In this document: piece by piece, positions 2,367 through 38,127 of the stretch
How the letters are laid out: each line of letters begins with the position of its first letter
Numbering within the stretch: position 1 is the first letter of the stretch
NCBI GenBank assembly: GCA_050014235.1
Contig: JBEKDS010000016.1
Location: forward strand, 44,760-108,759
DNA length: 64,000 nucleotides
Direction of reading: 5' to 3'
Origin: Acidobacteriaceae bacterium
Lineage (GTDB): Bacteria; Acidobacteriota; Terriglobia; Terriglobales; Acidobacteriaceae
Notes under the pieces: model-generated
What the model saw: only the letters and a program-made list of their open reading frames with translations
The model's database searches: none
Told to the model about the DNA's origin: nothing
Translations under genes and position numbers: made by a program

Positions 2367-4361
2367 TCATGCGGTGGCCCCCATCACGACTGGCGTTCGC
2401 GCGACTGTCAGCACCGTAATGTCGTCGGCCTGCGGCGCGCCCACCCCAAACGCCCGCGCTGCCTGGGCAATCGCCTCCGCCGCCTGCCCGCTGATCGCCT
2501 GCGTCCGCTCAAACCCGAACAGCTCCTTCGTGGCTGCTGCAGTCGCTTCCACTACGCCGTCCGTCACCAGCGTCAATCTCTGTCCCGCATCAATGTGCAA
2601 CTGCGTCTCGGCATATCCGACATCCAGCGTAACGCCCAGCGGAAGGTTGCTGTCGGTCTGAATCTCGACGCCGTCGAGGTAGGGGTTGGGATGGCCGGCA
2701 TTCGCGATCGTCACCTCGCCCTCCCGCGTGATCATCAGCGCAAGGCAAGTGGCGAAGCCGGCGGTGCGGCCATGCAGGCGGCGGTTCAGGCCAGCCAGCA
2801 GTTCGGCAGGGCTGGAGTAGAACTCCGCGTAGGTGCGCAGCGTCCCCACAATCAGCGATACCGTCATCGCTGCCTTCAACCCCTTGCCGCTGACGTCGCC
2901 GACCACGATGAACGTCGCGCCGTCGCCCCCCTCAGGATTCAGGACGGGCAGCACCTGGAAGAAATCCCCGCCAACCTCCTGCGCCGGCAGGTACGCGCTC
3001 TTTACGGTGAGGCCCGGGACCGGCGGAAGAAAGTCCGGAATCAGTACCTGCTGCACGGTCCGTGCCGCCTCGAACTCCTCGGCGAGACGCGTGCGCTCGG
3101 CCTGGTCCTCGGCGAAGCGTTCGATGAGCACATACGCCATCGCCGCGAGAAAGCATACCTGGGCTGCATCGGTGTACGTCAGTTGAAAGGGATGGGAGAC
3201 CAGCGGCGGGATATCCTGTAGCGTAAGGCCCGCCTGGAACAGGCTGATACTCATGGCCTCCGCAAGTTCTGCAAGAGCGAGCAACACCAATGGGACGGCG
3301 AGTCTCCGCGCAGCGCGGGAATTTTTCCAGTAAGCCGCCACAAGCCACAGCAGGGTGAGATAAAAGAAAACCGTCTCGATCACACCGATCGCATTCCACA
3401 AGGCGACGCTCGTCGGGTGAGCGTAGCTCTCCAGCATGTCGAAGAGCAGAAACGGGACCTGGGCGATCACGACCCATCGCGGCCATCCCCGCACAGGCCT
3501 GCCAACAAAGCGAAAGAAGAACAGGATAAAGGCAACCGTGCAGACGTAGTTCAGCGAAAAGTCGCCGCGATCGCGAGCGTTGATCGTCACTGAGATCCAA
3601 TGGCCGGCGGCGTAGTCCCAAATCGTGCCGAGACCGTTGCAGACCTCGAGCAGACCGAACCAAAAATACTCCGGGCTGGACCGCTCCTTCAGATAGAGCA
3701 AGAGCGCCAGCAAACCTGCCAGGATCGAAGCCGAAGCGATCGCCAGGCCCGGCAAGCCTGTCGTCAGGATCGCTGCGTCCGCCCGATGCGCGTCGCGGTC
3801 TGCAACCACTGCCGGCGCTCCGAGCAGCACCGGCCCCCCGCCGAAGCCGCCGCCGTTGTACGGCGCCCACACACTCCAGTGCCACGTCCGGATTGCCACC
3901 TCAATCTCCCCGGAGTGACCGGGCGACCCCGCTTGGATTGTCCCTGCGTTGTACCGGGCGAGCGGCACTGAGCCAGGCGACAATGGTCCCCATTGGCCAA
4001 CCTTGACGCCATCCGCGAAGACTTCGTAGCTGTCGTGGATGTGGCCCGGCGCGATGGCAAAGGGGGCATCCGGCGGCAGCTTCAGGTGGATGCGGTACCA
4101 TGCATAGCCGCTGTAACCCTTGTACCCTTGCTCGTCCCAGCTCCTGTCGCCCGCCAGCAGGGGCCATTGCGAATCGTCGAAGGCGGGATCGGCCCAGCGC
4201 GGGTCGTCGCCGGGGTGGAAGCGCCACTTCGCCTTGCTCAGATCGGCGAGCAGGACGGTCTGCTTGGTGAGATCGACGGTTTGGCCGGCCACCGGTGCCG
4301 CGCCGATCAGCGCAAGACACAGCCACAAGCGCCACCCCGGGCACCCAACGGCTCCGCGCAT
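2367..4361 (-). CDS. Second tandem membrane PP2C/SpoIIE phosphatase with carbohydrate-binding-like sensor domain
   Basis: Start MRGAVG (ATG 4361, GAGGAAGG upstream); same architecture and catalytic motifs as 298-2250; C-terminal halves highly similar. Confidence 0.9.
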   Translation of the reverse strand: MRGAVGCPGWRLWLCLALIGAAPVAGQTVDLTKQTVLLADLSKAKWRFHPGDDPRWADPAFDDSQWPLLAGDRSWDEQGYKGYSGYAWYRIHLKLPPDAPFAIAPGHIHDSYEVFADGVKVGQWGPLSPGSVPLARYNAGTIQAGSPGHSGEIEVAIRTWHWSVWAPYNGGGFGGGPVLLGAPAVVADRDAHRADAAILTTGLPGLAIASASILAGLLALLLYLKERSSPEYFWFGLLEVCNGLGTIWDYAAGHWISVTINARDRGDFSLNYVCTVAFILFFFRFVGRPVRGWPRWVVIAQVPFLLFDMLESYAHPTSVALWNAIGVIETVFFYLTLLWLVAAYWKNSRAARRLAVPLVLLALAELAEAMSISLFQAGLTLQDIPPLVSHPFQLTYTDAAQVCFLAAMAYVLIERFAEDQAERTRLAEEFEAARTVQQVLIPDFLPPVPGLTVKSAYLPAQEVGGDFFQVLPVLNPEGGDGATFIVVGDVSGKGLKAAMTVSLIVGTLRTYAEFYSSPAELLAGLNRRLHGRTAGFATCLALMITREGEVTIANAGHPNPYLDGVEIQTDSNLPLGVTLDVGYAETQLHIDAGQRLTLVTDGVVEATAAATKELFGFERTQAISGQAAEAIAQAARAFGVGAPQADDITVLTVARTPVVMGATA

Positions 4362-4479
4362 TCCTTCCTCCGGCTGAAGTTTCTCCTGAAGTGGGTCTAT
4401 TGAGTGTACGCTTTTGTCCGGATTCAAATGGCGGAGACCAGCTCCCGCGCGACAAGCCGGGTCGTCGATTCGACCCCAC

Positions 4480-4540
4480 CGCAACCCGCGTTAAAGTCAG
4501 CACCGCAATGTTGTCGCCCTGGCCGAAAGCAGTACTCACC
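4480..4540 (-). pseudogene. Remnant 3' end of another SpoIIE gene
   Basis: Minus strand reads STAFGQGDNIAVLTLTRVA, resembling the SpoIIE C-terminal AFG..QxDDITVLTxARV of the neighbouring genes. Confidence 0.55.
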
Positions 4541-4582
4541 GGCGCCCGGGTCTAAATCGCACCTCGGCTGTCTCGGCTTTAT

Positions 4583-4790
4583 TCACGCATCCATCCACTT
4601 GGTATAGTCCTGAAAAATCTCAGGCAGCAGCAAGACAAGAATCACTGCAAAGGTCAACTGGTCGTTGAACTGTCCGCTTGCAGGAGAGGCAAATCCCGGA
4701 CGGATCCCTTTGATCGTGCCGTCGCGACCCACGAAGATTTGCAAAGTTGCCTCTCCGCTCTGAGAAGGACGCGGATGCCTTGCAGCCTTT
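4583..4790 (-). pseudogene. Possible C-terminal fragment of a TlpA/redoxin-family protein
   Basis: LQIFVGRDGTIKGIRPGFASPASGQFNDQL resembles the TlpA C-terminal (T-x-F-I-G-R-D-G) segment; no CxxC half present. Confidence 0.4.
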
Positions 4791-23718: not shown

Positions 23719-26487
23719 TCAGGCCGTCCGCTTCCACACTACGTAGTACGGCTGATTGGAGAGGGTCGAATTCAGCGATGGATACAGCCACGCAACCTTC
23801 TCCGAGCGCAGTTCAAAGTAATACTGCAGCGGATAAGGAGAGCTGGTGTAGTCCGCGGGGACCGCCGCATGGAAGACCCCTCCCTCGCGGGTCATCGGCG
23901 CCGCTTGCCAACGCTCTGCATGGTTGACATGGCGATAATGCAGCACAACCGATACGCCTTGGCTTGCGGCTGTTGGATCCAAACTCAGCGCAAGAGGCAA
24001 CGCCTCTCCGGGACGGAAGGCGCCGGCAGGCGTGTGACCGCAACGAATCGCAGGCCGGTGGACCTTCGCGGCCACAGCTTCAATTGCACCGGACGCGTTC
24101 TGGCCCTGCGCGCTCGCCTTCCTCTCCAATTGCTGCCGCATCGCCGCGATGTCCTCGTCGATGTGCGCCAGCCGGTCGATCCAGTGGCCCCGCCGCGTCG
24201 CCGTCGATCCGTACGAGATATCCGCGCGATAGACACCCTTCGCGCGTTCAGCCATTGCAGCCCAGGCCGCGCGCGCCTTCCTGTACTCCACTAGCGCTAG
24301 TTGGCCGGCCTTCGCATCGCCTGTGTACAAATAGATTTCGAACAGCAAAGCGCTGCGCAGCTTCGCAGCGAAGAAGCGTCCCAATCCAATCTGGATCTGC
24401 ACATCTTCCTCCATCCTGCGAAACTGCGGCGTCCGTACCCGCGCGGCCGCCGTGCGCCGCGCCGCGGCGAGCGCCAGCTCCGATCCCGCGGTTAACCCAT
24501 CCAGCCACTCCGCGACCTCGACCGGGGAGTACTTCGCGCCCTGGTTCCCCGCAAGGACTTCCTTGGCGTGATCCGCAATCGTCGAGAATAGCTGCGGATC
24601 GAGCGCACTCACGGTCGCGAAGCATCTTGGGGTGGGCGTATCGCTATACGGCGAGCGGTCTTCACCCTGCACGATCGGCATGTTCTCGTACATCTCGTAC
24701 CATAGCGAATGGTTCGATGCCGAGGGCAGGTGCGCCGTCGTCAGCAGCGGCAGCACGCTGCTCGCACTACCGACCGCCTCTTCCACAGGCCCGGCCGAAG
24801 CCGCTCCAAAGTCCTTGCGCAGGAATCGCCGCCACACCTCAGGGTCGGCCTGCGGATTGTAGAGAAGCCTCCCCCAAAGCCGGTACGTGTACTCAAACTT
24901 CTTCCACTCGCCCGCCGCCGGCGTCAGCGTCTCATCCGCGTACGCCAATCGACCGCCTGCGAGCCCCGATCCCTCGCGTCCCTTGAAGAACAGCGGCTCA
25001 AATATCTCCATTCCGCTGGCGCCGCAGAAGTGTGCCGCCCGCCCATACGCCGCCGCCGCCTGCGGGTCGCCCCATAGCAGATGCCGCTGCGTCCCCGGCC
25101 ACATGCGAAAGAGCACGTCGAACTTGCGCCCCTCCTGGAAGAGGTCGGCATAGCCGTAGCGCGTGAACAGCCGGTCGCCGCTGCTCACGCTGAAGGTGCC
25201 GGTCTCGATATGCCCGGGCTTGGGAATCTCCAGCGCGCGAATGTCCGCCTGGTGGTAGCCGAGGCCCTGGTGCTCGGCCCAGAACTTCGGGCTCACCTTC
25301 ACCGGCATACCCGTGGCCACTGCGATGTCGAACATCTCCTGGTTGATGCCCTTGGCGTGCATGTCGATCTCGACCCTGCGCCCGCTCGCCGGTATGGCCT
25401 CGAACAGCGTCTTCCAGAACGGGTAGCTGCCCTCCGGAATCCCGCTCTCCCCGTGCACCCGAAAGGTGAGCCCCTCAATCTGCGGACACGCCTTCAGCAG
25501 CATCGCCAGCGCGTCGCGGCAGTAGGCCGCGTGCGTCTCCGGAGTCAGGCCCACGATGTGGTGCGTCGAGTGCGGGCTGTCCGTCCACGCATACGCATGC
25601 GTCCACAGCCCCAGCTGGAATTGAATCCCGCGCGCCGCCGTCTCCGCTGCGATGAACTGCAGCATCGCCAGGTTGCGCTCGCGCTCCCCCTCCGCCAGCG
25701 GCACCACCCGCACATCGTACCCCGGCACGCTCACCAGATATGGATAGGGAAGATGAAAGTAGTCGTCCGTCACTCCCCTGGGAAAGTCGTACGCCAGGCC
25801 AAGCGTGAAGCTGAACCGGTTGAACCGGCTGAGCGCCAGCACATCCAGATAGCCGCGCCAGAAATCCTTGTCGTAGAACCACGGCTTGTCCTCCACCTCG
25901 CTGCAAAAGGCCCGCGCCATGCTCCGCACCTGGTTCGCGGGCGTCTCGCGCACGGCATGGGTCAACTGCAACGCGCCACCAGCCGCATCGCCGGACTCCA
26001 CCCGCTCGGCGAGCTCCATCAGTCCATAGCCGAACCCGCGCGCATCGCTCGACGAAACAAGCACCGCCGGTACGTCCGCCACGCGGCCTGGCGTCAGGCT
26101 TATGCTCTCCGGCCCCTCGCGGAAGGACGCGTCTCGTGCGAACGCGGCCGCCAACTCCGACGAAGACCGGGCCACAACAATGTAGTGGGTCACCCCGGTC
26201 CGCGCCGTTGGCCGCGCCGCGCGCTCTGTCTCAATTCCCTTCTCCAGAAGCGCCAGCTGCAGCCTCTCCATCGCCCACTTGACGGATGCCGCCGAGGTCG
26301 CTGCCTCGCTCTCGTCCAGCACAAAGCAGACCTTCCCGAGCGGCGCAGCATGCGCACCAACCGACGCGCCCCCCACCGCAGCCGCACCGGCCAGCTTCAC
26401 AAACTCGCGGCGGTCGATGCGCGGAAGCTTTGTCCTCGAACGATCTAGCCGCGGAACATCCAGTCGCGGCAATCCAGGGTCTCGCAT
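23719..26487 (-). CDS. Large Tat-exported hypothetical protein (922 aa), possibly a glycosidase
   Basis: DRREFVKLAGAAAVGG twin-Arg; barrel-like segments (FRVHGESG, VSPKFWAEHQG); C-terminal YPLQYYFEL beta domain; no family recognised. Confidence 0.75.
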   Translation of the reverse strand: MRDPGLPRLDVPRLDRSRTKLPRIDRREFVKLAGAAAVGGASVGAHAAPLGKVCFVLDESEAATSAASVKWAMERLQLALLEKGIETERAARPTARTGVTHYIVVARSSSELAAAFARDASFREGPESISLTPGRVADVPAVLVSSSDARGFGYGLMELAERVESGDAAGGALQLTHAVRETPANQVRSMARAFCSEVEDKPWFYDKDFWRGYLDVLALSRFNRFSFTLGLAYDFPRGVTDDYFHLPYPYLVSVPGYDVRVVPLAEGERERNLAMLQFIAAETAARGIQFQLGLWTHAYAWTDSPHSTHHIVGLTPETHAAYCRDALAMLLKACPQIEGLTFRVHGESGIPEGSYPFWKTLFEAIPASGRRVEIDMHAKGINQEMFDIAVATGMPVKVSPKFWAEHQGLGYHQADIRALEIPKPGHIETGTFSVSSGDRLFTRYGYADLFQEGRKFDVLFRMWPGTQRHLLWGDPQAAAAYGRAAHFCGASGMEIFEPLFFKGREGSGLAGGRLAYADETLTPAAGEWKKFEYTYRLWGRLLYNPQADPEVWRRFLRKDFGAASAGPVEEAVGSASSVLPLLTTAHLPSASNHSLWYEMYENMPIVQGEDRSPYSDTPTPRCFATVSALDPQLFSTIADHAKEVLAGNQGAKYSPVEVAEWLDGLTAGSELALAAARRTAAARVRTPQFRRMEEDVQIQIGLGRFFAAKLRSALLFEIYLYTGDAKAGQLALVEYRKARAAWAAMAERAKGVYRADISYGSTATRRGHWIDRLAHIDEDIAAMRQQLERKASAQGQNASGAIEAVAAKVHRPAIRCGHTPAGAFRPGEALPLALSLDPTAASQGVSVVLHYRHVNHAERWQAAPMTREGGVFHAAVPADYTSSPYPLQYYFELRSEKVAWLYPSLNSTLSNQPYYVVWKRTA

Positions 26488-26765: not shown

Positions 26766-26930
26766 ATGCAACCCAGAATCGCCGCCTCTCCGGCTCCTCC
26801 GGCGCAACCGAAGAAGCCCTGGGTGCCCCCTGCGATTGTGATCTTGCCGTTGCGTAGCGCGACCGGCAACAGCCCCGGCTCCAAATGCGACAAATACGGC
26901 TCGCTCTCCCACGGAACCGGCTGCGCCTAA
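26766..26930 (+). CDS. 54-aa RiPP-precursor-like peptide (not in the ORF track)
   Basis: GAGG 5 nt before ATG; MQPRIAASPAPPAQPKKPWVPPAIVILPLRSATGNSPGSKCDKYGSLSHGTGCA*; WxxPxI leader-like motif and Gly/Ser-rich core with 2 Cys and an Asp. Confidence 0.55.
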   Translation: MQPRIAASPAPPAQPKKPWVPPAIVILPLRSATGNSPGSKCDKYGSLSHGTGCA

Positions 26931-27017
26931 GAAGGATGCACCTTCCCCTGCCCCGTGTTCGAGCCTCACCTCGCCAAATTTGAACCCTGACTGGCGACGC
27001 CCTACTATACGAGGGAG

Positions 27018-29409: not shown

Positions 29410-30684
29410 ATGCAACCAAGCATCGGCAGCCCCTCCAACCCCAGCACCACCGCCCCCAGTCACCGCATAGGAGCCAGCCCCTGGCCCTTCGTCCTGCTCG
29501 TCTCCGCCGCCATCGCCATCGCCTACTTCGATCGCCAGACCGTCTCCGTGGCCATCACCGCGATCCAGCGCAAAATCCCCATCTCCAACCAGCAATTTTC
29601 GTATCTGCAAACGGCGTTCCTCCTCGCCTACGCCGCCCTCTACATCATCGGAGGCCGCCTGCTCGATCGCCTCGGCACCCGCGCCGGCTTCCTCCTCATC
29701 ATGACCTGGTGGTCGCTCGCCTGCGCCCTGCACGGCCTCGCCACCGGCTTCACCCTCCTCCTCGCCGCCCGCTTCCTCCTCGGCATGGGCGAAGGCGGCG
29801 CCTTCCCCGCCGCCACCCGCGTCGTCTCCGAGTGGGTCCCCATCCCCCAGCGCTCCTCCGCCATGGGCGTCATCAACGCCGGCACCGCCGTCGGCTCGCT
29901 CCTCGCCCCGCCCCTCATCGGCCTCGTCCTCTTCCTCAGCGGATGGCGCATGGTCTTCTTCATCTCCGCCGCCATCGGCCTCGCCTGGGTCGTCCTCTGG
30001 TCCCTCACCTACCGCAGCAACCCCGCAACCCCCGCCCAAAACACACCCACCCCCATACCCCAACTCTCCTTCGCCCAAATCCTCCGCTACCCCCTCGTCC
30101 GCTCCCTCGTCTTCGCCAAGTTCATGAGCGACTCCGCCTGGTACTTCCTCCTCTTCTGGCTGCCCAAGTACCTCTACGACGCCCGCGGCTTCGACATCAA
30201 ACACGTCAGCCTCTATGCCTGGATCCCCTACGCCGCCTCCGGCATCGGCAGCCTGCTCGGCGGCCTGCTCTCCAGCCGCCTCCTCCGCACCGGCCACTCG
30301 CTCGACCGCTCCCGCAAGCTCGTCCTCGGCCTCAACGCCTGCTGCATGCCCGCCGTCATGCTCGTCCCGCTCGTCCCCGTGCAGTATGCGCTGCTCCTCT
30401 TCAGCATCGCCTTCTTCTCGCAACAGTCGTGGTCCGGCCTCATCATGACCATCCCCGCCGACATCTTCCCTCTCTCCGCCGTCGGCACCGTCGCCGGCCT
30501 CGTCGGCTTCGGAGGCTCCATCGGCGGAGCCATCTTCGGCCTCATCGCCGGCCAGCTCCTCGGCCACGGATTCTCCTATGGCCTCCTCTTTATCCTCGTC
30601 GGCACCTTCCACCTCATCGGCTTCCTCGCCCTCCTCACCTTCGGCGGCAAACTCCAACCCCTCCGCACCCCCGACCTCGCCTGA
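29410..30684 (+). CDS. MFS transporter, ACS/ExuT-like sugar-acid permease
   Basis: AYFDRQ, GRLLDRLGTR, RFLLGMGEGGAFP, WLPKYL. Confidence 0.9.
   Translation: MQPSIGSPSNPSTTAPSHRIGASPWPFVLLVSAAIAIAYFDRQTVSVAITAIQRKIPISNQQFSYLQTAFLLAYAALYIIGGRLLDRLGTRAGFLLIMTWWSLACALHGLATGFTLLLAARFLLGMGEGGAFPAATRVVSEWVPIPQRSSAMGVINAGTAVGSLLAPPLIGLVLFLSGWRMVFFISAAIGLAWVVLWSLTYRSNPATPAQNTPTPIPQLSFAQILRYPLVRSLVFAKFMSDSAWYFLLFWLPKYLYDARGFDIKHVSLYAWIPYAASGIGSLLGGLLSSRLLRTGHSLDRSRKLVLGLNACCMPAVMLVPLVPVQYALLLFSIAFFSQQSWSGLIMTIPADIFPLSAVGTVAGLVGFGGSIGGAIFGLIAGQLLGHGFSYGLLFILVGTFHLIGFLALLTFGGKLQPLRTPDLA
30632..30684 (+). repeat. Direct repeat copy 1: MFS 3' end
   Basis: tcctcaccttcggcggcaaactccaacccctccgcacccccgacctcgcctga; recurs at 32426-32477. 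Confidence 0.85.
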
Positions 30685-30719
30685 CGCATCGTGGATAATT
30701 GTTCAACGGAGCCGAACGT

Positions 30720-31673
30720 ATGCCTACCGAGATCGTCAGCCATCAAACGCCGGAGGAGGCAGATGACCATCTCAAGAGAGGCTTGGAGTTTCTCAGCCAG
30801 GAAAAGTGGGACGATGCCTTTAGGTGTTTTCTGCGCGGAATTCAACTTAGCCCCGACCACTCCGAATTGCAACTTATGCTTGGAGTCCTGCACTACAACG
30901 GGCAAGGCGTGCCGCGGAAATACGAAGAGGCAGCAAAGTGGTACCGTAAGGCCGCCGATCAAGATAACCTTCATGCACAGTTCAACCTTGGCTTGCTTTA
31001 TGACCGGGGCGAAGGCGTAGCCCAGGATTACGCGCAGGCCGCAGCATGGTATCGCAGAGCCGCAGACAAAGGGGATGCAAATGCGCAATACCTCCTGGGC
31101 TCGCTCTACAATCATGGACAGGGCGTAGCACAGGATTTTGGGCAAGCCGCGGAGCTCTATCGCAAATCTGCCGGCCAAGGCAACGCGGATGCACAGTTTG
31201 AGCTGGGAAAGCTTTACGATCGCGGCGAAGGAGTCCCGCAGGACGATGCACGGGCGGCAACTTGGTATCACGAGGCGGCTAAGCAGGGAAAAGCCGGCGC
31301 CCAGTTCGGTCTAGGCCAAAAATACGAAAAGGGACAGGGCGTTCCGCAGGAATGGGGGCAAGCCACTTTTTGGTACAGGGAGGCGGCTGAACAGGGAATG
31401 CCGGAGGCCCAATCGGCACTTGGAGGTATCTACCTTAACGGGCCCGTCCCCAGGAATTTCAGCGAAGCTGCCCGCTGGTACCGCAAGGCCGCTGAACAGG
31501 GATGGCAATACGCCCAATTCTTCTTAGCTTTTCAATATCGGTATGGGATGGGCGTTCCCCGGGATTTGAACCAAGCTATGTTTTGGTGTCGCAAGGCCGC
31601 TGAACAGGGAAATGAACTAGCGAAGGAGTTTCTGATGGTCTTGAGTCACGGCTCAGTGCCAGAAGCGCAATGA
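30720..31673 (+). CDS. Sel1/TPR repeat protein
   Basis: About 7-8 repeats of AQFxLGxLYxxGxGVxQDxxxAAxWYRKAAxQG; no signal peptide. Confidence 0.92.
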   Translation: MPTEIVSHQTPEEADDHLKRGLEFLSQEKWDDAFRCFLRGIQLSPDHSELQLMLGVLHYNGQGVPRKYEEAAKWYRKAADQDNLHAQFNLGLLYDRGEGVAQDYAQAAAWYRRAADKGDANAQYLLGSLYNHGQGVAQDFGQAAELYRKSAGQGNADAQFELGKLYDRGEGVPQDDARAATWYHEAAKQGKAGAQFGLGQKYEKGQGVPQEWGQATFWYREAAEQGMPEAQSALGGIYLNGPVPRNFSEAARWYRKAAEQGWQYAQFFLAFQYRYGMGVPRDLNQAMFWCRKAAEQGNELAKEFLMVLSHGSVPEAQ

Positions 31674-31772
31674 GTAGGCGAATGCACCGTCTCTATTAGT
31701 CGACCGGAATGATAGGATCGGCGCGCGTCGTAATCTGAAATCCGAGTCCCAGCTACTAAAAGGAGATTATTC

Positions 31773-32072
31773 GTGGAGATTTCACGGAAGTTTACGAGAG
31801 AGTCGTTCTACGGATTTAACATGAACGATGCCGAAGTCGGCCCCGGTGTGCACCATGGTCTAGCAATAGAACTGAAACATCTCTTCGAGGCCATTGCCGC
31901 CGATGCGGATGAGCAAAATGATGAAGTATTCTTCACCAGAGACCTCGACCACGCTTTGCGAAGATTCTTTGTGGACCCGACGAAACCCAGCTTAGACCAT
32001 TTACTTGAGGTAAGCCCAGTCCTCATCCGGCCTGTCGAAGAATTACAGCTGCTTTTGCTGATGAGACCATAG
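31773..32072 (+). CDS. Hypothetical protein (99 aa, acidic)
   Basis: AAGGAG upstream of a GTG start; low-GC segment. Confidence 0.5.
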   Translation: MEISRKFTRESFYGFNMNDAEVGPGVHHGLAIELKHLFEAIAADADEQNDEVFFTRDLDHALRRFFVDPTKPSLDHLLEVSPVLIRPVEELQLLLLMRP

Positions 32073-32081
32073 ATGCCAAGC

Positions 32082-32351
32082 CTATTGGACGCGAAAACGT
32101 GAAAGGTGTTCTATGTCGTCCTCATCCATCTCAATCGCCCGAATTGGCTGAAGCGTTCCACAGTGCAAAAGTGCCTCGTCCCACTTCGTCCAGTCAACAT
32201 CTCTGAGAAACTCTGTCACGATGTGATTGTAAGCACCTGACCCGAACGGAACTGTAAATTCCAAACTGCCGTCTTGAGCCTTGATGCGGAGGGAACATCG
32301 GTGCCCAGTTGTTGGATTGTAAGAATAACTCACTGCCGTTTCGTATCCCAT
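32082..32351 (-). CDS. Hypothetical protein (89 aa)
   Basis: GGGAG RBS; protein-like composition; convergent with 31773-32072. Confidence 0.5.
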   Translation of the reverse strand: MGYETAVSYSYNPTTGHRCSLRIKAQDGSLEFTVPFGSGAYNHIVTEFLRDVDWTKWDEALLHCGTLQPIRAIEMDEDDIEHLSRFRVQ

Positions 32352-32425
32352 ATAGACTCCCTGAGTTCATCGTACCGATAAAATGCTGACGGGAAGAGTA
32401 TCCCGGATCGAATCATGAACACAAG

Positions 32426-32477
32426 TCCTCACCTTCGGCGGAAAACTCCAACCGCTCCGCGTCCCGACCTCACCTGA
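32426..32477 (+). repeat. Direct repeat copy 2: degenerate duplicate of the MFS 3' end
   Basis: tcctcaccttcggcggaaaactccaaccgctccgcgtcccgacctcacctga; about 6 differences from copy 1 including a 1-bp gap. Confidence 0.85.
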
Positions 32478-32523: not shown

Positions 32524-33696
32524 ATGAAGATCACCTCAATCCGCACCCGCGTCGTCGAATGGACCGGCCCCACCGTCCCCCTCCCGCCCCACTTCTGCAC
32601 CAATCCCATGGACCTCGTCGCCTTCCGCCAACCCTCCATGGGCAACTTCGCCTTCCACGGCTGGGTCCTCGTCGAGATCTTCACCGACGCCGGCCTCGTC
32701 GGCCTCGGCAACGCCGCCCTCTCGCCCCACGTCACCAAGTCCCTCATCGACACCTACCTCAAGCCCATCCTCCTCGGCGCCGACCCCTGGGACACCGAGT
32801 TCCTCTGGCAGCAGATGTACCGCCGCACCATGGCCTTCGGCCGCAAAGGTGTCGCCATGGTCGCCATCTCCGCCGTCGACATCGCCCTCTGGGACCTCCT
32901 CGGCAAATCCGCCAAACAGCCCGTCTTCCGACTCCTCGGCGGCCGCACCAAGGAGAAGATTCCCGTCTACGCCAGCCGCCTCTACGCCATGCCCATCCCC
33001 GAGCTCCGCGCCGAAGCCCAGAAATATAAAGACGAAGGCTACCAGGCCATGAAGCTCCGCTTCGGCTGGGGCCCCATCGACGGCGCCGCAGGCATGACCA
33101 AAAACATCGACCTCGTCCGCAACGTCCGCGAGGTCGTCGGCGACGGCATCGACCTCATGGCCGACGCCTACATGGGCTGGACCCTCGACTACGCCAAACG
33201 CATGTTGCCCCTCCTCGAACCCTTCCACCTCCGCTGGTTAGAGGAGCCCGTCATCCCTGACGACACCCGCGGCTACGCCGAACTCAAGCGCCACGCCCGC
33301 GTCCCCATCGCCGGCGGCGAACACGAGTTCACCATCTTCGGCTTCCGCGAACTCCTCGAAGCCAACGCCCTCGACTACATCCAGTTCGACACCAACCGCG
33401 TCGGCGGCATCTCCCAGGCCCGCAAAATCTGCGCCCTCGCCGAGTCCTTCCAGGTCCCCGTCGTCCCCCACGCCGGCCAGATGCACAACTACCACATCTC
33501 CATGGCCAGCCTCAACTGCCCCATCTCCGAGTTCTTCCCGCCCGTCGACGTCGAAGTCGGCAACGAACTCTTCTGGTACATCTTCAACGGCGAACCCACC
33601 CCCACCAACGGCTTCATCGACCTCGACGACCACCTCCCCGGCCTCGGCCTAACCGTCAACGAAGAATCCCTAACCCGCTTCACCATCACCGGCTGA
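32524..33696 (+). CDS. Mandelate racemase/muconate lactonizing enzyme family sugar-acid dehydratase (RhmD-like)
   Basis: AISAVDIALWDLLGK, KLRFG, LMADAY, WLEEP, GGEHE, YIQFD, VPHA. Confidence 0.9.
   Translation: MKITSIRTRVVEWTGPTVPLPPHFCTNPMDLVAFRQPSMGNFAFHGWVLVEIFTDAGLVGLGNAALSPHVTKSLIDTYLKPILLGADPWDTEFLWQQMYRRTMAFGRKGVAMVAISAVDIALWDLLGKSAKQPVFRLLGGRTKEKIPVYASRLYAMPIPELRAEAQKYKDEGYQAMKLRFGWGPIDGAAGMTKNIDLVRNVREVVGDGIDLMADAYMGWTLDYAKRMLPLLEPFHLRWLEEPVIPDDTRGYAELKRHARVPIAGGEHEFTIFGFRELLEANALDYIQFDTNRVGGISQARKICALAESFQVPVVPHAGQMHNYHISMASLNCPISEFFPPVDVEVGNELFWYIFNGEPTPTNGFIDLDDHLPGLGLTVNEESLTRFTITG
33426..33696 (+). repeat. Direct repeat copy 1: 271-bp 3' end of the dehydratase gene
   Basis: Recurs at 34315-34585 with 11 mismatches by manual count and no gaps. 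Confidence 0.95.
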
Positions 33697-33733
33697 GAAA
33701 TCTCGCCGCCTTGAGAACGCCTGCGTTCTAAGA

Positions 33734-33797
33734 TAGGGCGGGACTTCAGTCCCGCCATCAACCGCCCGCTTGAGAGAGGGGCTTTAGCCCCTGAGGG
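33734..33797. repeat. REP-like palindromes
   Basis: ggcgggacttcagtcccgcc hairpin followed by ggggctttagcccc. Confidence 0.6.
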
Positions 33798-33833
33798 CGT
33801 AGGGTTATCCTTATGCGAGGGGGAGCATAGTCC

Positions 33834-34028
33834 ATGAACAATGTCTTGGAGATCGAACGTGCGATCAGTGCGCTGTCGCCGAAGGAGCTGGACGAGTTGT
33901 ACACGTGGATGGATCGAAACTGTCCTATCGACGTGCAGCTCAAGGCCGACCTGGATGCCGGACGCATCGACGACCGCATCGCCCGCGCTTTGGCCGATCA
34001 TAGCGCCGGAAACACGCAGCCTCTTTGA
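33834..34028 (+). CDS. Putative type II antitoxin (64 aa)
   Basis: Small acidic protein directly upstream of a RelE/ParE-like toxin; EIERAISALSPKELDEL...DLDAGRID. Confidence 0.65.
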   Translation: MNNVLEIERAISALSPKELDELYTWMDRNCPIDVQLKADLDAGRIDDRIARALADHSAGNTQPL

Positions 34029-34036
34029 CGCGCACG

Positions 34037-34306
34037 ATGGTTCACCGCGCAAACGCGGATTTCTGGAACGATTACCGCGCCCTCTCCGCTGAGGTTCGCG
34101 CCCGTGCCGACAAGCAATTCGCGTTGCTGAAAGCCAACCCGCAACACCCATCCCTGCAATTCAAGAAAATCGGCGAGCGGCGCGGCGAGGAAATTTGGTC
34201 GGCCCGAGTAACGCTGATATACCGTGCTCTCGCCGTCAGGTTGTCTGACGAATATATCTGGTTCTGGATCGGCGAGCACAACCTCTACGACGCCATCATT
34301 TCCTAG
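34037..34306 (+). CDS. RelE/ParE-like type II toxin
   Basis: FWNDYRALSAEVRARADKQFALLKANPQHPSLQFKK...WSARV...YRALA...WFWIGEH. Confidence 0.8.
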   Translation: MVHRANADFWNDYRALSAEVRARADKQFALLKANPQHPSLQFKKIGERRGEEIWSARVTLIYRALAVRLSDEYIWFWIGEHNLYDAIIS

Positions 34307-34314
34307 TCGCTTCC

Positions 34315-34585
34315 AATCTGCGCCCTCGCCGAGTCCTTCCAGGTCCCCGTCGTCCACCACGCCGGCCAGATGCACAACTACCACATCTCCATGGCCAGCC
34401 TCAACTGCCCCATCTCCGAGTACTTCCCACCCGTCGACGTCGAGGTCGGCAACGAACTCTTCTGGTACATCTTCTCGGGCGAACCCACCCCCACCAACGG
34501 CTTCCTCGACCTCGACGACCACCTCCCCGGCCTCGGCCTAACCGTCAACGAAGACTCCCTAAAACGCTTCACCATCACCGGCTGA
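34315..34585 (+). pseudogene. Duplicated 3' fragment of the dehydratase gene (repeat copy 2)
   Basis: About 96% identical to 33426-33696; no 5' part. Confidence 0.9.
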
Positions 34586-34628
34586 AAATGGGCCAGAGCG
34601 AAGCTGGCGTTGGCGAAAGCTACGGTAG

Positions 34629-34928
34629 CTAGAGTACTTCTGGGTTGAAGTCGGCCGTGTGAGGGTGCGCGAATACACCCGCGCTCGTTTTCTTCCAATC
34701 GCGTTCGTCCAGCAGGTCGAGGAGTTTCCTGAAGTACCGGCCACGGATGTAGAACATATCGCCCGATGTCTCGCGCAAGCTCACATCTTCTTTGTTGTTC
34801 TTCCATATCTCAAGCTGGAACATCGAGCCATCGATGTCTCCGCCGCTCAACTCACGGACAAAGAGCGACAAGAACTCGCCGCCCTTCTGATAAGTCCGAC
34901 TCACGATGACAACCGCCTTCGGGTTCAT
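34629..34928 (-). CDS. Hypothetical protein (99 aa)
   Basis: AAAAGGAG upstream of a GTG start; co-oriented with the lipoprotein; low GC. Confidence 0.5.
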   Translation of the reverse strand: MNPKAVVIVSRTYQKGGEFLSLFVRELSGGDIDGSMFQLEIWKNNKEDVSLRETSGDMFYIRGRYFRKLLDLLDERDWKKTSAGVFAHPHTADFNPEVL

Positions 34929-34990
34929 CGTTCACTCCTTTTTTGCCTTCACCAACGTTGCGCTGAGCCTCACTGATCCACCTGAAGGCA

Positions 34991-36400
34991 TCAATAGAAA
35001 GCTGCCACGGCTGCATCCCAACCCTCGTTCTGGATGCTATTTGAGGTAACAAAAGTAGCAGCGTAACTACCCTGTGCGGTGACAAGCTCATCTTCCACGC
35101 AGAAGTATGGCGAAACGAAACGACTGTTAAAGCCTGAACCAGCCGTTACGTTTACGTCGGCAACAGCGATCCCCAAAATCAGTTCATTTGCATGATTTGT
35201 TGTGACATTACCTGACGATACAGTCGCGCCACTGGTGCCCCCGGCAGTGCCAGTGACATCAAGAAATCCAACATTTGAATATTCGAGAATCGCCATCGAG
35301 AATTGGTTGGCGTTGGCGTAGCTCACCTTCACTGTGACGGAGAGATTACTTGAACCAGTCACGTTCGAAGCTGCATATATCCAACCAGCCCAGTCATTGC
35401 TGTCAACGGAGGATGTCTGCTTTACGGGATAGTAAGCATCGCCAGCGGAATCAGTAACCGATACGATGCTCGAACCCGGTAGAGAATTCCACCAGAAAGC
35501 AACCGCAATCAAGTCCCCTTTCGCCACGGGGTTGTTGAACGTCGCAGTATAGGTTTGAGCGGGATTAGACGCGGTGGCTTGCGATGTGAAATTGGATGAC
35601 TGGATGAAACTCGTATTAGAGGGGGGAGACGTACCTGCTCTATTTGCAATGAAGACATTGCCTGAAGTGGACGATGACACACCCGCCAAGAGTTGGCGGG
35701 TGACTCCATCTGGCAATAGGTAGTCTACTGCCACGCCAGTTTGCGTTTGGTTCGGCAGCAAGCATGGACTGCCACCATACTGCAGGGCGAAATCGAAAAA
35801 AGCGTTCCCGGATGGGTCTGGGGTAATTGTGCCGGAAAATACGCAGCCCTGACTTGTCCCGGTGAACGTTCCATTCGCTGCTATCGTTACTTGAGCCGCG
35901 ATGTTCCCGAAAAGATAACCCGACCACGTCCCAGTGATATTTGATAGCAGCGCCGGCGTGCCGAACGTGAACTGGCTACTGGGAATAGGAATGCCGCTGA
36001 ATGCCACACTTGCATTGCCGACCTCGGACACAGATCCGTTGATACTCGATCCGACGACGTATGTTGAATTGACGGTGCCGGTATAGATAACGCCGGTGTA
36101 GTAGTAGTCATTCACCTTGGCAGTGTAGGTGCCATTGTTGTATGTGCCCTGTCCTGTCATCATACCGTCCACCGTAAACACGTTGCCGCTAGTCGTGCCA
36201 TACAGGGCATAGAACGTGCTATTTGGAAGAACAATGGTCTCGAATGTTTCACCCGTGGAGGTCGTGCCCAGGTAAATACCTTGCGGAGAACCTTGGGTAG
36301 CCGGGGGTGTAGTGGTCGTCCCGCCTCCGCTATTGCTGGCTCCGCAACCAGCCAGCGTCATCACCCCGGAGGCGAGCAAGAACAATAGTCTGCGGTTCAT
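34991..36400 (-). CDS. Predicted lipoprotein, Thr/Ser/Gly-rich and beta-rich surface protein
   Basis: MNRRLLFLLASGVMTLAGC lipobox; GGGTTTTPP linker; low GC. Confidence 0.8.
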   Translation of the reverse strand: MNRRLLFLLASGVMTLAGCGASNSGGGTTTTPPATQGSPQGIYLGTTSTGETFETIVLPNSTFYALYGTTSGNVFTVDGMMTGQGTYNNGTYTAKVNDYYYTGVIYTGTVNSTYVVGSSINGSVSEVGNASVAFSGIPIPSSQFTFGTPALLSNITGTWSGYLFGNIAAQVTIAANGTFTGTSQGCVFSGTITPDPSGNAFFDFALQYGGSPCLLPNQTQTGVAVDYLLPDGVTRQLLAGVSSSTSGNVFIANRAGTSPPSNTSFIQSSNFTSQATASNPAQTYTATFNNPVAKGDLIAVAFWWNSLPGSSIVSVTDSAGDAYYPVKQTSSVDSNDWAGWIYAASNVTGSSNLSVTVKVSYANANQFSMAILEYSNVGFLDVTGTAGGTSGATVSSGNVTTNHANELILGIAVADVNVTAGSGFNSRFVSPYFCVEDELVTAQGSYAATFVTSNSIQNEGWDAAVAAFY

Positions 36401-36479
36401 GGGAAAAGCCTCTCATCGATCTCTGCGTTGGCTGCGTAACCTTGATGCCCGGCAGTGTCCCAACCCGAACAGGTGCGAC

Positions 36480-36698
36480 TCAGCCCATTATTCCCTTAGT
36501 TGGCACGAAAAAGGCGTCCGTCTGCAGCTTAGGTTCCTTAGTGACAACTGTCACGTCGCTCGTTTTGGCCCACCTCTTGGACGCCCCATCGGTCCCCAGT
36601 TGAACCTCCCAACAGGGCTCTACCGTGCGGCTGCCGACGACCTTCCAAACGCCGGGCTCCCCTGCGATACTTACTTGGTCGTTCATCTCAACCACCAT
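36480..36698 (-). CDS. Small hypothetical protein (about 70 aa, SH3/Tudor-like composition)
   Basis: GGAGG RBS; DQVSIAGEPGVWKVVG...WEVQLG. Confidence 0.5.
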   Translation of the reverse strand: MVVEMNDQVSIAGEPGVWKVVGSRTVEPCWEVQLGTDGASKRWAKTSDVTVVTKEPKLQTDAFFVPTKGIMG

Positions 36699-36804
36699 AT
36701 CGATTCCTCCACTCTACGGTATATCAGACAACAGGTAACCGGAGAAAAATGACCTCCTCTGACACGGACTCTCACTTACTCTCATTCAAAGGAGGCACCT
36801 GCTC

Positions 36805-37260
36805 ATGAAAAACCTGTTCGATGCCACGGTGGCGAACGAAGTAAAGACCCGCCTGGCACAATTGCAGCCGCAAACCGAAAGGCTCTGGGGCAAGATGACC
36901 GCGGCGCAGATGCTGGCCCATTGTTCGGTGAGCATGCAGTGGGCGGTGGGAGAAGTGGTGCCCGATAAGATAGCGCTCCCCCCGCGTCTGATCGGGCGGC
37001 TGGTGAAGCCGATGGTGTTTCGCAACGATGACCCGATGCGCAAGAACTCGCCGACCGCCAAGAGCCTCATCGTGGCCGGCGAACCGGATCTGGCCAAGGA
37101 ACGCGACCGGCTATCGGGACTGATCGACAGATCCGCAGCAGGAGGCCCGGCAGCCTGTACGACGAATCCCCACAGCTTCTTCGGAAAGATGACGCCGGAC
37201 GAATGGGCGATCTTAATGTACAAACACCTCGACCATCATCTGCGCCAGTTCGGCATGTAA
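36805..37260 (+). CDS. DUF1569 / DinB-superfamily protein
   Basis: AAGGAGG RBS; LWGKMTAAQMLAHC, HSFFGKMT...W...YKHLDHHLRQFG. Confidence 0.88.
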   Translation: MKNLFDATVANEVKTRLAQLQPQTERLWGKMTAAQMLAHCSVSMQWAVGEVVPDKIALPPRLIGRLVKPMVFRNDDPMRKNSPTAKSLIVAGEPDLAKERDRLSGLIDRSAAGGPAACTTNPHSFFGKMTPDEWAILMYKHLDHHLRQFGM

Positions 37261-37281
37261 CCGTCTCCGCCCTCGGGCTCG

Positions 37282-37301
37282 CCGCGCTATAGTGAGGCAT
37301 C
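37282..37301 (+). repeat. 20-bp direct repeat copy 1 flanking the MNT-HEPN module
   Basis: ccgcgctatagtgaggcatc, identical at 38108-38127. Confidence 0.9.
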
Positions 37302-37371
37302 TGTGGCAGGTGGGTAAGAATAACCTAGATCGACGAATCGGCACGCGATACGATGGTTGCTGGAGGCGGCC

Positions 37372-37662
37372 ATGCGACCATCGGAGGCTTTGGAGCAAAA
37401 GCGTGAGGCCATACGCGAACTGGTTCCGCGATTCCGCGCCTGCAACCCACGCGTCTTCGGCTCCGTCCTTCGCGGCCTCGATCGAGAGACCAGCGACCTG
37501 GACATCCTTGTCGATACACTGCCCGGAGCCACCCTTTTCGACTTGGGTGCGCTTCAGGAGCAATTGCGCGGGCTCCTCGGCATCCGGGTCGAAGTGCGAA
37601 CCCCGGGCGATCTGCCGCTGACCTTCCGGGACGAGGTGGTCTCGGAGGCAGAGCCAGTCTGA
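37372..37662 (+). CDS. mntA: MNT minimal nucleotidyltransferase antitoxin
   Basis: RVFGSVLRG...SDLDILVD (GS...DxD motif); 96 aa. Confidence 0.9.
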   Translation: MRPSEALEQKREAIRELVPRFRACNPRVFGSVLRGLDRETSDLDILVDTLPGATLFDLGALQEQLRGLLGIRVEVRTPGDLPLTFRDEVVSEAEPV

Positions 37663-38012
37663 TGGAACGCCGCCTCTACGAATATCTCCGCCAGATCAGG
37701 ACCGCTGCCCAGGATTCCATCCAGTTCGTAGACGGGATTAGTTACACGGATTTTCAAGCCGACACGAAGACGCAACGCGCCGTCACGATGAACCTTGTGA
37801 TCCTGGGGGAAGCCGCCGCAAAGATCGAAGAGCATTTTCCGGAGTTCGCCGTGGCGCATCCGGAGATAGCCTGGACAGCCATCCGCGGAATGCGGAACCG
37901 AATCGTCCACGAGTATTTCATCCTGAACTTCGAGACCATCTGGACGACCGTCGAAGCAGAGCTGCCACGATTGATGCGCCAGGTCGAATCGGTCCTACAG
38001 TCCGAGCCATAG
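37662..38012 (+). CDS. hepT: HEPN (DUF86/HepT-like) ribonuclease toxin
   Basis: Coupled to MNT; ILGEAA, RNRIVHEY (RxxxxH), IWTTV. Confidence 0.9.
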   Translation: MERRLYEYLRQIRTAAQDSIQFVDGISYTDFQADTKTQRAVTMNLVILGEAAAKIEEHFPEFAVAHPEIAWTAIRGMRNRIVHEYFILNFETIWTTVEAELPRLMRQVESVLQSEP

Positions 38013-38107
38013 CCGACGGCGATGAGCAGGCATACGCTGATGGTAGCGACGTGGGAAGGGGGTGGGAGCCTCGGCGCTTGATTCAGCGATCGGAGAGAGG
38101 ACGGGGT

Positions 38108-38127
38108 CCGCGCTATAGTGAGGCATC
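38108..38127 (+). repeat. 20-bp direct repeat copy 2, containing a TATAGT -10-like hexamer
   Basis: Identical to 37282-37301; 25 bp upstream of the dehydrogenase ATG. Confidence 0.9.

Follow-up and report, generated by a model that had tools for sequence, protein, structure and literature searches.

Defence islands are hotspots of accessory genes that lie between conserved core genes. Homology-facilitated illegitimate recombination, reportedly set out by de Vries and Wackernagel in 2002, is one way for foreign DNA to settle beside a homologous anchor, and at icd of Escherichia coli the elements e14 and phage 21 replace the 3' end of the gene, with icdC as the resulting pseudogene. Homology-facilitated illegitimate recombination combines one homologous end with an illegitimate joint that has 3-10 bp of homology, usually with a deletion in the recipient (PMC3240628). 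In a set of 60 E. coli integrants of DNA with a single homologous arm, 56 were single crossovers of recircularised fragments, with duplications of 109-950 bp, and 4 were true homology-facilitated illegitimate recombination (PMC3240628). Toxin-antitoxin (TA) pairs can stabilise DNA that is prone to deletion, as relBE1 and parDE1 do in the Vibrio vulnificus superintegron and mosAT does in the integrative element SXT (PMC5543033). Here we describe a natural locus that touches on each of these systems. It lies in a stretch of 64,000 nucleotides (nt) from an Acidobacteriaceae bacterium (assembly GCA_050014235.1, contig JBEKDS010000016.1, positions 44,760 to 108,759), which we refer to as the window, and consists of a RelE/ParE-like TA pair between two copies of the 3' end of a predicted acid-sugar dehydratase gene.

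Comparison with other strains indicates that the two copies began as different alleles of the population. We consider it probable, at roughly 0.65, that donor DNA from a relative was added at a cargo hotspot through one homologous joint and one illegitimate joint guided by homeology. The features involved are listed below by their positions in the window; aa, amino acids.

32524-33696, strand +: intact gene of an enolase-superfamily acid-sugar dehydratase, 390 aa, L-lyxonate/L-rhamnonate dehydratase-like (Pfam MR_MLE_N, MR_MLE_C)
33426-33697, strand +: copy 1, the working 3' end of the dehydratase gene including its stop codon
33697-33798, strand +: hairpin spacer of 102 nt with three hairpins (fold energy -58.7 kcal/mol, z = -2.6)
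33729-33797, strand +: 69-nt double-hairpin element within the spacer, found also 3' of the dehydratase gene in other strains
33799-34307, strand +: TA cassette proper, delimited by homology to TA loci in other genomes
33834-34028, strand +: candidate antitoxin gene, 64 aa, upstream of the toxin gene, its stop codon overlapping the TTG at 34025
34025-34306, strand +: gene of a toxin with predicted RelE/YoeB/ParE fold, 93 aa (start TTG) or 89 aa (start ATG at 34037) (Pfam ParE_like PF24732)
34288-34314, strand +: putative illegitimate joint, made up of 20 nt from the toxin gene's 3' end and a further 7 nt (34308-34314, CGCTTCC)
34315-34586, strand +: copy 2, apparently the 3' part of another dehydratase allele, displaced and lacking a working 5' part

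The two copies of the dehydratase gene end

The direct repeat measures 271-272 nt (copy 1, 33426-33697; copy 2, 34315-34586) at an offset of 889 nt, and a search of the whole genome (4.2 Mb) found these two copies only (E = 4e-124 for copy 2). The repeat had been described in an initial annotation made from the letters of the sequence, and it is real: the copies differ by 11 mismatches and no gaps, and the amino acid exchanges given there (P/H, F/Y, N/S, I/L, E/D, T/K) are correct. The same annotation called the changes mostly synonymous or conservative. Conservative is a fair description; synonymous is not, as six of the eight changed codons carry these replacements and two are silent. The longest identical runs are 65, 49 and 41 nt, and the composition of copy 2 (C 0.435, G 0.188) is C-rich and resembles that of core genes. 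We also noted that adjacent bases changed together in two of the eight differences, AAC/TCG at 33586-33588 (TCC in L037 and L038) and ACC/AAA at 33674-33675; multi-nucleotide changes are over-represented among the copy differences, which are a small sample.

The dehydratase gene that contains copy 1 matches both Pfam domains clearly (MR_MLE_N, E = 4.7e-20; MR_MLE_C, E = 1.8e-60). Its best NCBIfam match is L-rhamnonate dehydratase, at 236 bits and below the equivalog cut-off of 393; one NCBI record labels a homologue L-lyxonate dehydratase, and among solved structures 3ssz, 3sqs and 3stp come closest (E = 1e-154 to 1e-158). The orthologues from six further species in the genus share 83-86% aa identity, with only 70-77% nt identity in the repeat region, too far for a fine polarising of changes. 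Our population sample was the cluster of dehydratase proteins at 90% identity, which has 45 members, mostly from JGI metagenomes (loci are denoted by L and a number). One part of the gene, 32824-33123, has 20-24 differences per 300 nt (7-8%) from each of six other full-length alleles, compared with ~3% elsewhere, which suggests the import of this tract from an unsampled lineage.

We aligned the 271 nt of both copies with the alleles of nine other strains, among which the region has 18 polymorphic sites. The states of both copies segregate in full-length genes of other strains at 33540, 33555, 33586-33588, 33616 and 33666. Seven of the 11 differing bases thus lie on shared polymorphic sites (P = 1.5e-6), or five of eight when counted by event (P = 6e-5), and the Ser codon TCG of copy 2, where copy 1 has AAC, is identical to that of L034. 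In a maximum-likelihood tree, copy 2 groups with L034, L037 and L038 (support 82/86, bootstrap and Shimodaira-Hasegawa-like approximate likelihood ratio test), within a clade that includes L039 (83/90), and copy 1 groups with L041, L032, L033, L040 and L044. The nearest alleles are L041, L032 and L033 for copy 1 (98%) and L034 (97%) and L038 for copy 2. Because seven of 11 differences are shared polymorphisms and the copies fall into separate groups of the tree, they originated as two population alleles and not as a local duplicate that decayed, in line with what the initial annotation had proposed.

Each copy also has changes of its own. Those found in copy 2 only are P to H at the equivalent of 33467, on a Pro that is invariant in all orthologues, in all alleles and in Protein Data Bank entry 3ssz, and F to Y at the equivalent of 33533, where the Tyr state occurs also in 3ssz. 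Copy 1 has one silent change (33555) and K to T (33674-33675). Copy 2 may have drifted slightly since the copies were joined, and to speak of two functional alleles, as the annotation did, was an overstatement for a fragment with a private replacement of an invariant Pro.

Spacer, toxin-antitoxin cassette and joint

The spacer behind copy 1 is shared with other strains. Its 69-nt element recurs with 98.6% identity in L044 and L111, and with 94% in L034, directly before a DinB gene. Because this element lies behind the dehydratase gene in all three, copy 1 and its spacer represent an ordinary haplotype of the population. Weaker copies of the element are found at C2:57190 and C45:7008 of genome G000. 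A different repeat of 46-57 nt, ATTGTCATCCTGACCCTGAGCGAAGCCGAAGGGGAAGGACCTGC, which resembles repetitive extragenic palindromes (REP) or miniature inverted-repeat transposable elements (MITE), occurs at at least 15 sites of the genome (e.g., C29:5656-5709 and C18:53074-53119) and in the dehydratase spacer of L044 (1847-1906). An Rfam scan of 33600-34750 gave no match.

The TA cassette has a different affiliation. Its nt identity is 86.6% to L042:3766-4274, from another acidobacterial contig, and 83.5% to L043, and the homology starts 35 nt 5' of the antitoxin ATG and ends 1 nt past the toxin TAG. The C-terminus of the toxin (...YDAIIS followed by the stop codon) is the same as in its closest homologue, in L042, and is thus the native end of a full-length toxin. 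Copy 2 is in frame with the toxin past the TAG, in a 193-aa frame interrupted by this one stop codon. Since the toxin end and its stop are native, the shared frame looks coincidental, a possibility that had already been raised when the locus was annotated. Read-through of the TAG that would fuse the toxin to copy 2 was considered as well and is ruled out by the native C-terminus and stop.

At the right end of the cassette, the 27 nt at 34288-34314 match dehydratase positions 33399-33425, just 5' of copy 1, in 15 of 27 bases. Matches this good are rare in the dehydratase gene, at 4 of 1145 positions, and the putative illegitimate joint therefore lies on a patch of homeology. No attC-like palindrome is found at 34307-34315, and the bracket consists of dehydratase coding sequence, so this is no integron-cassette end.

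The TA pair itself is predicted to be an intact and active type II module with a toxin of the RelE/YoeB/ParE fold. The toxin passes the PF24732 cut-off of 24.4 bits marginally, with a score of 26.5 bits (E = 6.7e-6), and many of its close homologues carry the PF24732 label; more than 1000 homologues were found, typically of 89 aa. An AlphaFold model built with 30 homologues has a predicted local distance difference test score (pLDDT) of 90.6 and a predicted template modelling score (pTM) of 0.78. The top Foldseek matches of this model are RelE3, YoeB, RelE and YafQ (template modelling score [TM] 0.65-0.70, probability 1.0), and the range over RelE3 (3oei), YoeB (2a6r), archaeal RelE (1wmi), YafQ and ParE2 is TM 0.56-0.73 with probability 0.99-1.0; no solved structure matches the toxin by sequence. 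Residues H3, D8, W10, D25, K43, R57, R63, H81 and Y84 are invariant among the homologues, of which R57, R63, H81 and Y84 presumably resemble the C-terminal His/Tyr of YoeB. The candidate antitoxin matches no Pfam family even at E <= 10, and the same 64-aa partner is kept in L042, L043 and L028. The closest toxin homologues (83-89% aa identity) are at other loci, and within the genus a homologue (53-63%) is present in only 4 of 200 genomes.

The pair thus shares with PF24732 and the RelE/YoeB/YafQ/ParE superfamily the length of 89 aa, the small antitoxin gene upstream and the C-terminal H-x-x-Y, as well as the predicted fold of the superfamily, with a beta strand, two helices, four strands and a C-terminal helix; in this small alpha/beta fold, the helical hairpin near the N-terminus packs against an antiparallel sheet. 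A toxin of this kind would be neutralised by its cognate antitoxin and would act through ribosome-dependent mRNA cleavage or through gyrase poisoning. It differs from the described PF24732 family in a score barely above the cut-off and in an antitoxin of no described family.

A cargo site and the origin of the duplication

We compared about ten metagenome haplotypes of the locus. In every haplotype other than the window's own, nt homology to the window ends at the dehydratase stop codon, and what follows differs from one to another. L038 has an AbiU2-type HEPN gene and a helix-turn-helix (HTH) gene; L039 and L052 have a deoxyribosyltransferase-like (Nuc_deoxyrib_tr-like) gene and an HTH gene; L040 has an N6_N4 methylase gene and an XcyI-type endonuclease gene (RE_XcyI), then DinB; L034 has DinB alone; L032 and L033 have DUF3738 and SnoaL genes, then DinB; and L044 and L111 have a peptidase-like gene. 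Counting the window's own, at least seven haplotypes occupy the gap between the dehydratase gene and the next conserved gene, for a dehydrogenase. Because the haplotypes diverge at the stop codon with different cargo each, this gap is a hotspot for strain-specific cargo in this species, largely of defence and TA genes.

The structure in the window is particular to its strain. The TA pair and the second copy of the gene end are in none of the other sampled haplotypes, so the pair is not fixed at this site, and L037-L041, L044, L052 and L111 have a single gene-end copy. A metagenome scan with a 19-mer from the gene end yielded 106 stretches; among the 80 of these covered as loci, the true dehydratase loci were L052 and L111 only, both of haplotypes already sampled.

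We infer the following order of events, with haplotype 1 as a possible donor. Haplotype 1 would have contributed the dehydratase 3' end (allele 1), 32 nt, the 69-nt hairpin element and the ParE-like TA pair, and haplotype 2 the dehydratase 3' end (allele 2), the cargo with 99-aa and 469-aa open reading frames (ORFs) and DinB. The homologous exchange may have taken place in the dehydratase gene or in the shared right flank, and the illegitimate joint would have formed directly behind the toxin stop, guided by the homeology of 15/27 bases with 33399-33425. The product would be an additive insertion with a direct duplication of 271 nt, in which copy 1 completes the working gene and copy 2 is probably a dead remnant that has since gained its two private amino acid changes.

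Such a product could be reached in two ways, for which the one-arm integrants of E. coli are an experimental precedent. On one route, an 889-nt fragment (271-nt arm, spacer and TA pair) would have recircularised, and this putative circular intermediate would have entered by a single crossover, i.e., a Campbell-type integration; on the other, a linear fragment would have entered through homology-facilitated illegitimate recombination. Both yield the same structure, and the copies alone fit either. The annotation had named Campbell-type recombination with DNA of a relative, of which the joining of alleles by recombination is supported by the population data, and the Campbell form is indistinguishable from the one-ended linear route. 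The repeats at the locus are those expected of a Campbell integration, with an insert between direct repeats of a homologous segment, a single copy of that segment in strains free of the insert, and differences between the repeats that are mostly allelic and not new mutations.

Once formed, the duplication would be prone to loss. If the copies recombined with each other through RecA, the TA pair would loop out and be lost, leaving a single chimeric dehydratase gene that probably functions; the P to H change would be imported only by crossovers in the first 41 nt. A toxin freed from its lost antitoxin would counter-select these loop-out segregants and so help the duplication persist. By analogy with TA pairs in other deletion-prone DNA, stabilisation of the duplication by the TA pair, also put forward in the initial annotation, is plausible.

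Several observations weigh against an origin by one homologous and one illegitimate joint. An approximately unbiased (AU) test keeps monophyly of the two copies (p = 0.13, on 271 nt only), with a cost of 9.8 log-likelihood units when monophyly is forced. The structure is known from one strain, which L035 and L036 match with 0 and 3 mismatches. Neither parental haplotype, i.e., an unduplicated dehydratase-TA arrangement or a dehydratase followed by the 99-aa and 469-aa ORFs, was found in any collection searched: the recipient haplotype, sought through the 469-aa protein, led to relatives only in unrelated mobile contexts, and the donor haplotype, sought through the toxin, led to closest homologues at other loci. 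A promoter scan of 33600-34750 gave no sigma-70-like promoter for the TA pair. Finally, cargo without TA genes is also bracketed by host duplications in this genome, and because of this the TA pair is not required for bracketed structures.

The alternative that fares best is one in which the duplication arose with identical copies, for instance from the DNA of a clonal sister, and one copy was later overwritten by import of a homologous allele. The population recombines, the dehydratase gene is a mosaic, as seen in the diverged tract at 32824-33123, and the AU test leaves room for monophyly of the copies. However, a tract imported into copy 1 would have to end within the last 30 nt of the gene, as the shared polymorphisms reach 33666 and the DNA past the stop codon is non-homologous in all other haplotypes. 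Import into copy 2 would require a donor with the same right-hand cargo, and none was found. Since this course of events also takes one event more than the origin from two joints, we regard it as unlikely.

A bolder proposal concerns the 889-nt unit of host arm (271 nt), hairpin spacer and TA pair, which could be a self-stabilising mobile unit that needs no transposase. A circle would loop out through the flanking repeats and re-enter relatives by a single crossover, and the toxin would kill cells that lose it. We find this doubtful. If it were true, TA addiction would let unstable Campbell-type insertions last until they are seen, and two other loci would be further instances. In L042, the TA pair is bracketed by a local duplication of 133 nt (3632-3764 and 4349-4480; 86-90%), with the left copy immediately next to the start of the cassette. 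In L162, the TA pair is flanked by an intact BrnA-like antitoxin gene and by a 96-nt copy of the 3' end of that gene (2613-2708 and 3344-3439; 84%), which has its own, different stop. A survey of 84 loci of the TA family would fit as well, in that, of 18 repeat pairs whose inner distance is TA-sized, 8 enclose the TA pair where 0.83 are expected, an enrichment that mixes attC arrays with host-gene duplications and outside Acidobacteriota comes mostly from attC-like sites. The brackets in L042 and L162 and this enrichment also speak for the origin by one homologous and one illegitimate joint. A control for flanking repeats with shifted mock cassettes gave no significant difference (13/71 vs 16/137). 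Members of this toxin family from other phyla are found in cassette arrays of the integron type: L214 has canonical attC ends (599-659 and 1162-1222; GCCTAAC...GTTAGGC), and L183, L186 and L230 have arrays of 90-125-nt hairpin repeats at a spacing of 450-900 nt.

A site-specific element that integrated at the dehydratase 3' end, supplied a replacement end and later lost its integrase would leave the same layout of an intact gene with a substitute 3' end, cargo and the displaced original end, and a tyrosine integrase gene does adjoin the dehydratase gene in L040, on its upstream side. Yet no ORF in 33697-38100 has an integrase or other recombinase domain (Pfam, NCBIfam), copy 1 and its spacer are an ordinary haplotype of the population and not element DNA, seven other haplotypes have cargo at the stop codon with no duplication, and the homeology left of the repeat boundary is patchy, with no shared core. 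We therefore consider such a remnant very improbable.

A purely local duplication, of the target-site type or by replication slippage, after which copy 2 decayed neutrally, has even less in its favour. Between the copies dN/dS is 0.70, above the 0.06-0.59 seen among alleles over the same 267 nt, and copy 2 has the P to H change at an invariant Pro. Against this stand the seven of 11 differences that agree with polymorphisms of functional alleles in position and base, AAC/TCG shared with L034 included, and the private changes that copy 1 has too; the low probability of such agreement by chance (P = 1.5e-6) makes local decay hardly tenable.

A chimeric contig assembled from two co-occurring strains is the least credible explanation, for even though the genome is in 51 contigs, the relatives come from metagenomes, and the contigs of L032-L034 and L037 end within the 3' end of the dehydratase gene or directly behind it, the structure is present in three assemblies (the 148,650-nt contig, the 105,854-nt L035 and the 6,876-nt L036 from another sample), and the joint at 34314/34315 has no sequence of k-mer length in common with the dehydratase context, so that a graph assembler would need spanning reads.

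Surroundings, other bracketed cargo and known systems

The cargo continues beyond copy 2, and an insert is found on the other side of the dehydratase gene as well.

30632-32477, strand +: insert between the major facilitator superfamily (MFS) transporter gene and the dehydratase gene, with a Sel1-repeat protein (Pfam) and small ORFs
34586-36785, strand -: second cargo block, directly behind copy 2 (GC 0.53, no C skew)
34629-34928, strand -: 99-aa ORF, no Pfam or NCBIfam match
34991-36400, strand -: 469-aa lipoprotein-like ORF, no Pfam or NCBIfam match
36805-37260, strand +: DinB/DUF1569 gene (Pfam; 89-90% nt identity in L032, L033, L034 and L040)
37282-38127, strand +: MNT-HEPN TA pair, genes at 37357-37662 and 37662-38012 (Pfam NTP_transf_2, HepT-like)
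~38150: next conserved gene, 3-hydroxyacid-dehydrogenase-like

In six other species of the genus, the gene order is MFS transporter, dehydratase, a gene of 337 aa and dehydrogenase. The 337-aa gene (MIHLVQ...) directly follows the dehydratase gene in those species (L004-L009, L023-L026). A tblastn search (E < 1e-20) finds it nowhere in the genome of the window's strain, and the haplotypes of close strains lack it too; because this gene is missing, the sugar-acid pathway may be incomplete or rewired in this species. The segment from 33697 to ~38100 takes its place, with a lower GC content and without the C-rich bias of core genes, and holds in order the TA pair, copy 2, the 99-aa ORF, the 469-aa ORF, DinB/DUF1569 and the MNT-HEPN pair. 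The block at 34586-36785 is in none of the other haplotypes, and the closest relatives of its 469-aa protein (86% and 78%) adjoin resolvase, AlpA and Mrr genes in unrelated contexts. Just upstream of the dehydratase gene, L040 has, in place of the window's MFS gene and Sel1 insert, a divergent tyrosine integrase gene (3630-4748; Phage_integrase). From the integrase at that place, the upstream side is variable too, and it is possibly targeted by integrases.

The Sel1 insert and the MNT-HEPN pair are both bracketed by repeats. The 3' end of the MFS gene (30632-30684) recurs as a degenerate copy at 32426-32477, over 52-53 nt with ~88% identity and one gap, and the repeat ends at the stop codon; the second copy lies 46 nt before the dehydratase ATG, and the two enclose the 1.7-kb, low-GC Sel1 insert. 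L037 has a single MFS-end copy and a different spacer of 420 nt. The MNT-HEPN pair lies between perfect direct repeats of 20 nt (37282-37301 and 38108-38127), of which L040 has one copy at the empty site between DinB and the dehydrogenase gene; in L039 the MNT region is incomplete (94% identity to 37305-37729). A scan of the genome for a gene end followed by small cargo and a repeat of that end found a few more cases (C36 and C42), and mostly tandem paralogues. In C36, the repeat is 75 nt long and is located close to the 3' end of a gene of 510 aa (29807-29880 and 30538-30612); its copies enclose a membrane ORF of 137 aa, which lies just upstream of an ftsZ-like gene, and in C42 a 54-nt repeat (25102-25155 and 26894-26947) surrounds a 539-aa ORF. 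C2 has a PIN/VapC gene between two 106-nt copies, 93% identical, of the 5' part of its antitoxin gene (67648-68682). The repeat bracket thus reflects the mode of cargo addition and is not specific to TA pairs.

The movement of small cassettes that have no transposase or integrase is rarely visible in natural genomes, as it usually ends in a clean double crossover within the flanks, which leaves no trace. At this locus a scar has survived and can be read against the population: two alleles bracket the cargo, the joint lies on homeology, and relatives show the hotspot in empty or alternative states. The locus is a natural test case, in a barely studied phylum, for additive one-arm integration and for TA protection of deletion-prone DNA, and it flags a hotspot of defence genes in Acidobacteriaceae.

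The nearest likeness is to Campbell-type integration and homology-facilitated illegitimate recombination, which share with the proposed origin the one homologous and one illegitimate joint and the foreign DNA beside a homologous anchor. As in the one-arm integrations of E. coli, the anchor is directly duplicated (271 nt here, 109-950 bp there) and the putative joint has patchy homology, perhaps microhomology; unlike those, the event here was natural, the arms are distinguishable alleles of a population and the cargo is a TA pair. In classical homology-facilitated illegitimate recombination, recipient DNA is usually deleted, whereas here it was duplicated and kept. The layout also resembles icd with e14 or phage 21, with an intact gene that has a substitute 3' end, inserted DNA and a displaced, near-identical 3' fragment with few substitutions, but the locus lacks both an integrase and an att core, its insert is only 618 nt and the substitute end is a normal chromosomal allele. 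Like the TA pairs of the superintegron and SXT, this one is a predicted type II pair of the RelE/ParE superfamily flanked by direct repeats, and recombination of these repeats would remove it; the repeats here, however, are fragments of a host gene and not attC sites, and the stabilising effect here is a presumed one. With defence islands the locus has in common its conserved flanks, sharp breakpoints of homology and strain-specific cargo of HEPN, restriction-modification and TA genes, and it differs in that it belongs to Acidobacteriaceae, lies beside a sugar-acid catabolic gene and is seen through about ten metagenome haplotypes. The locus exemplifies, in nature and at good resolution, processes that are already known, and it does not represent a system of a new kind.

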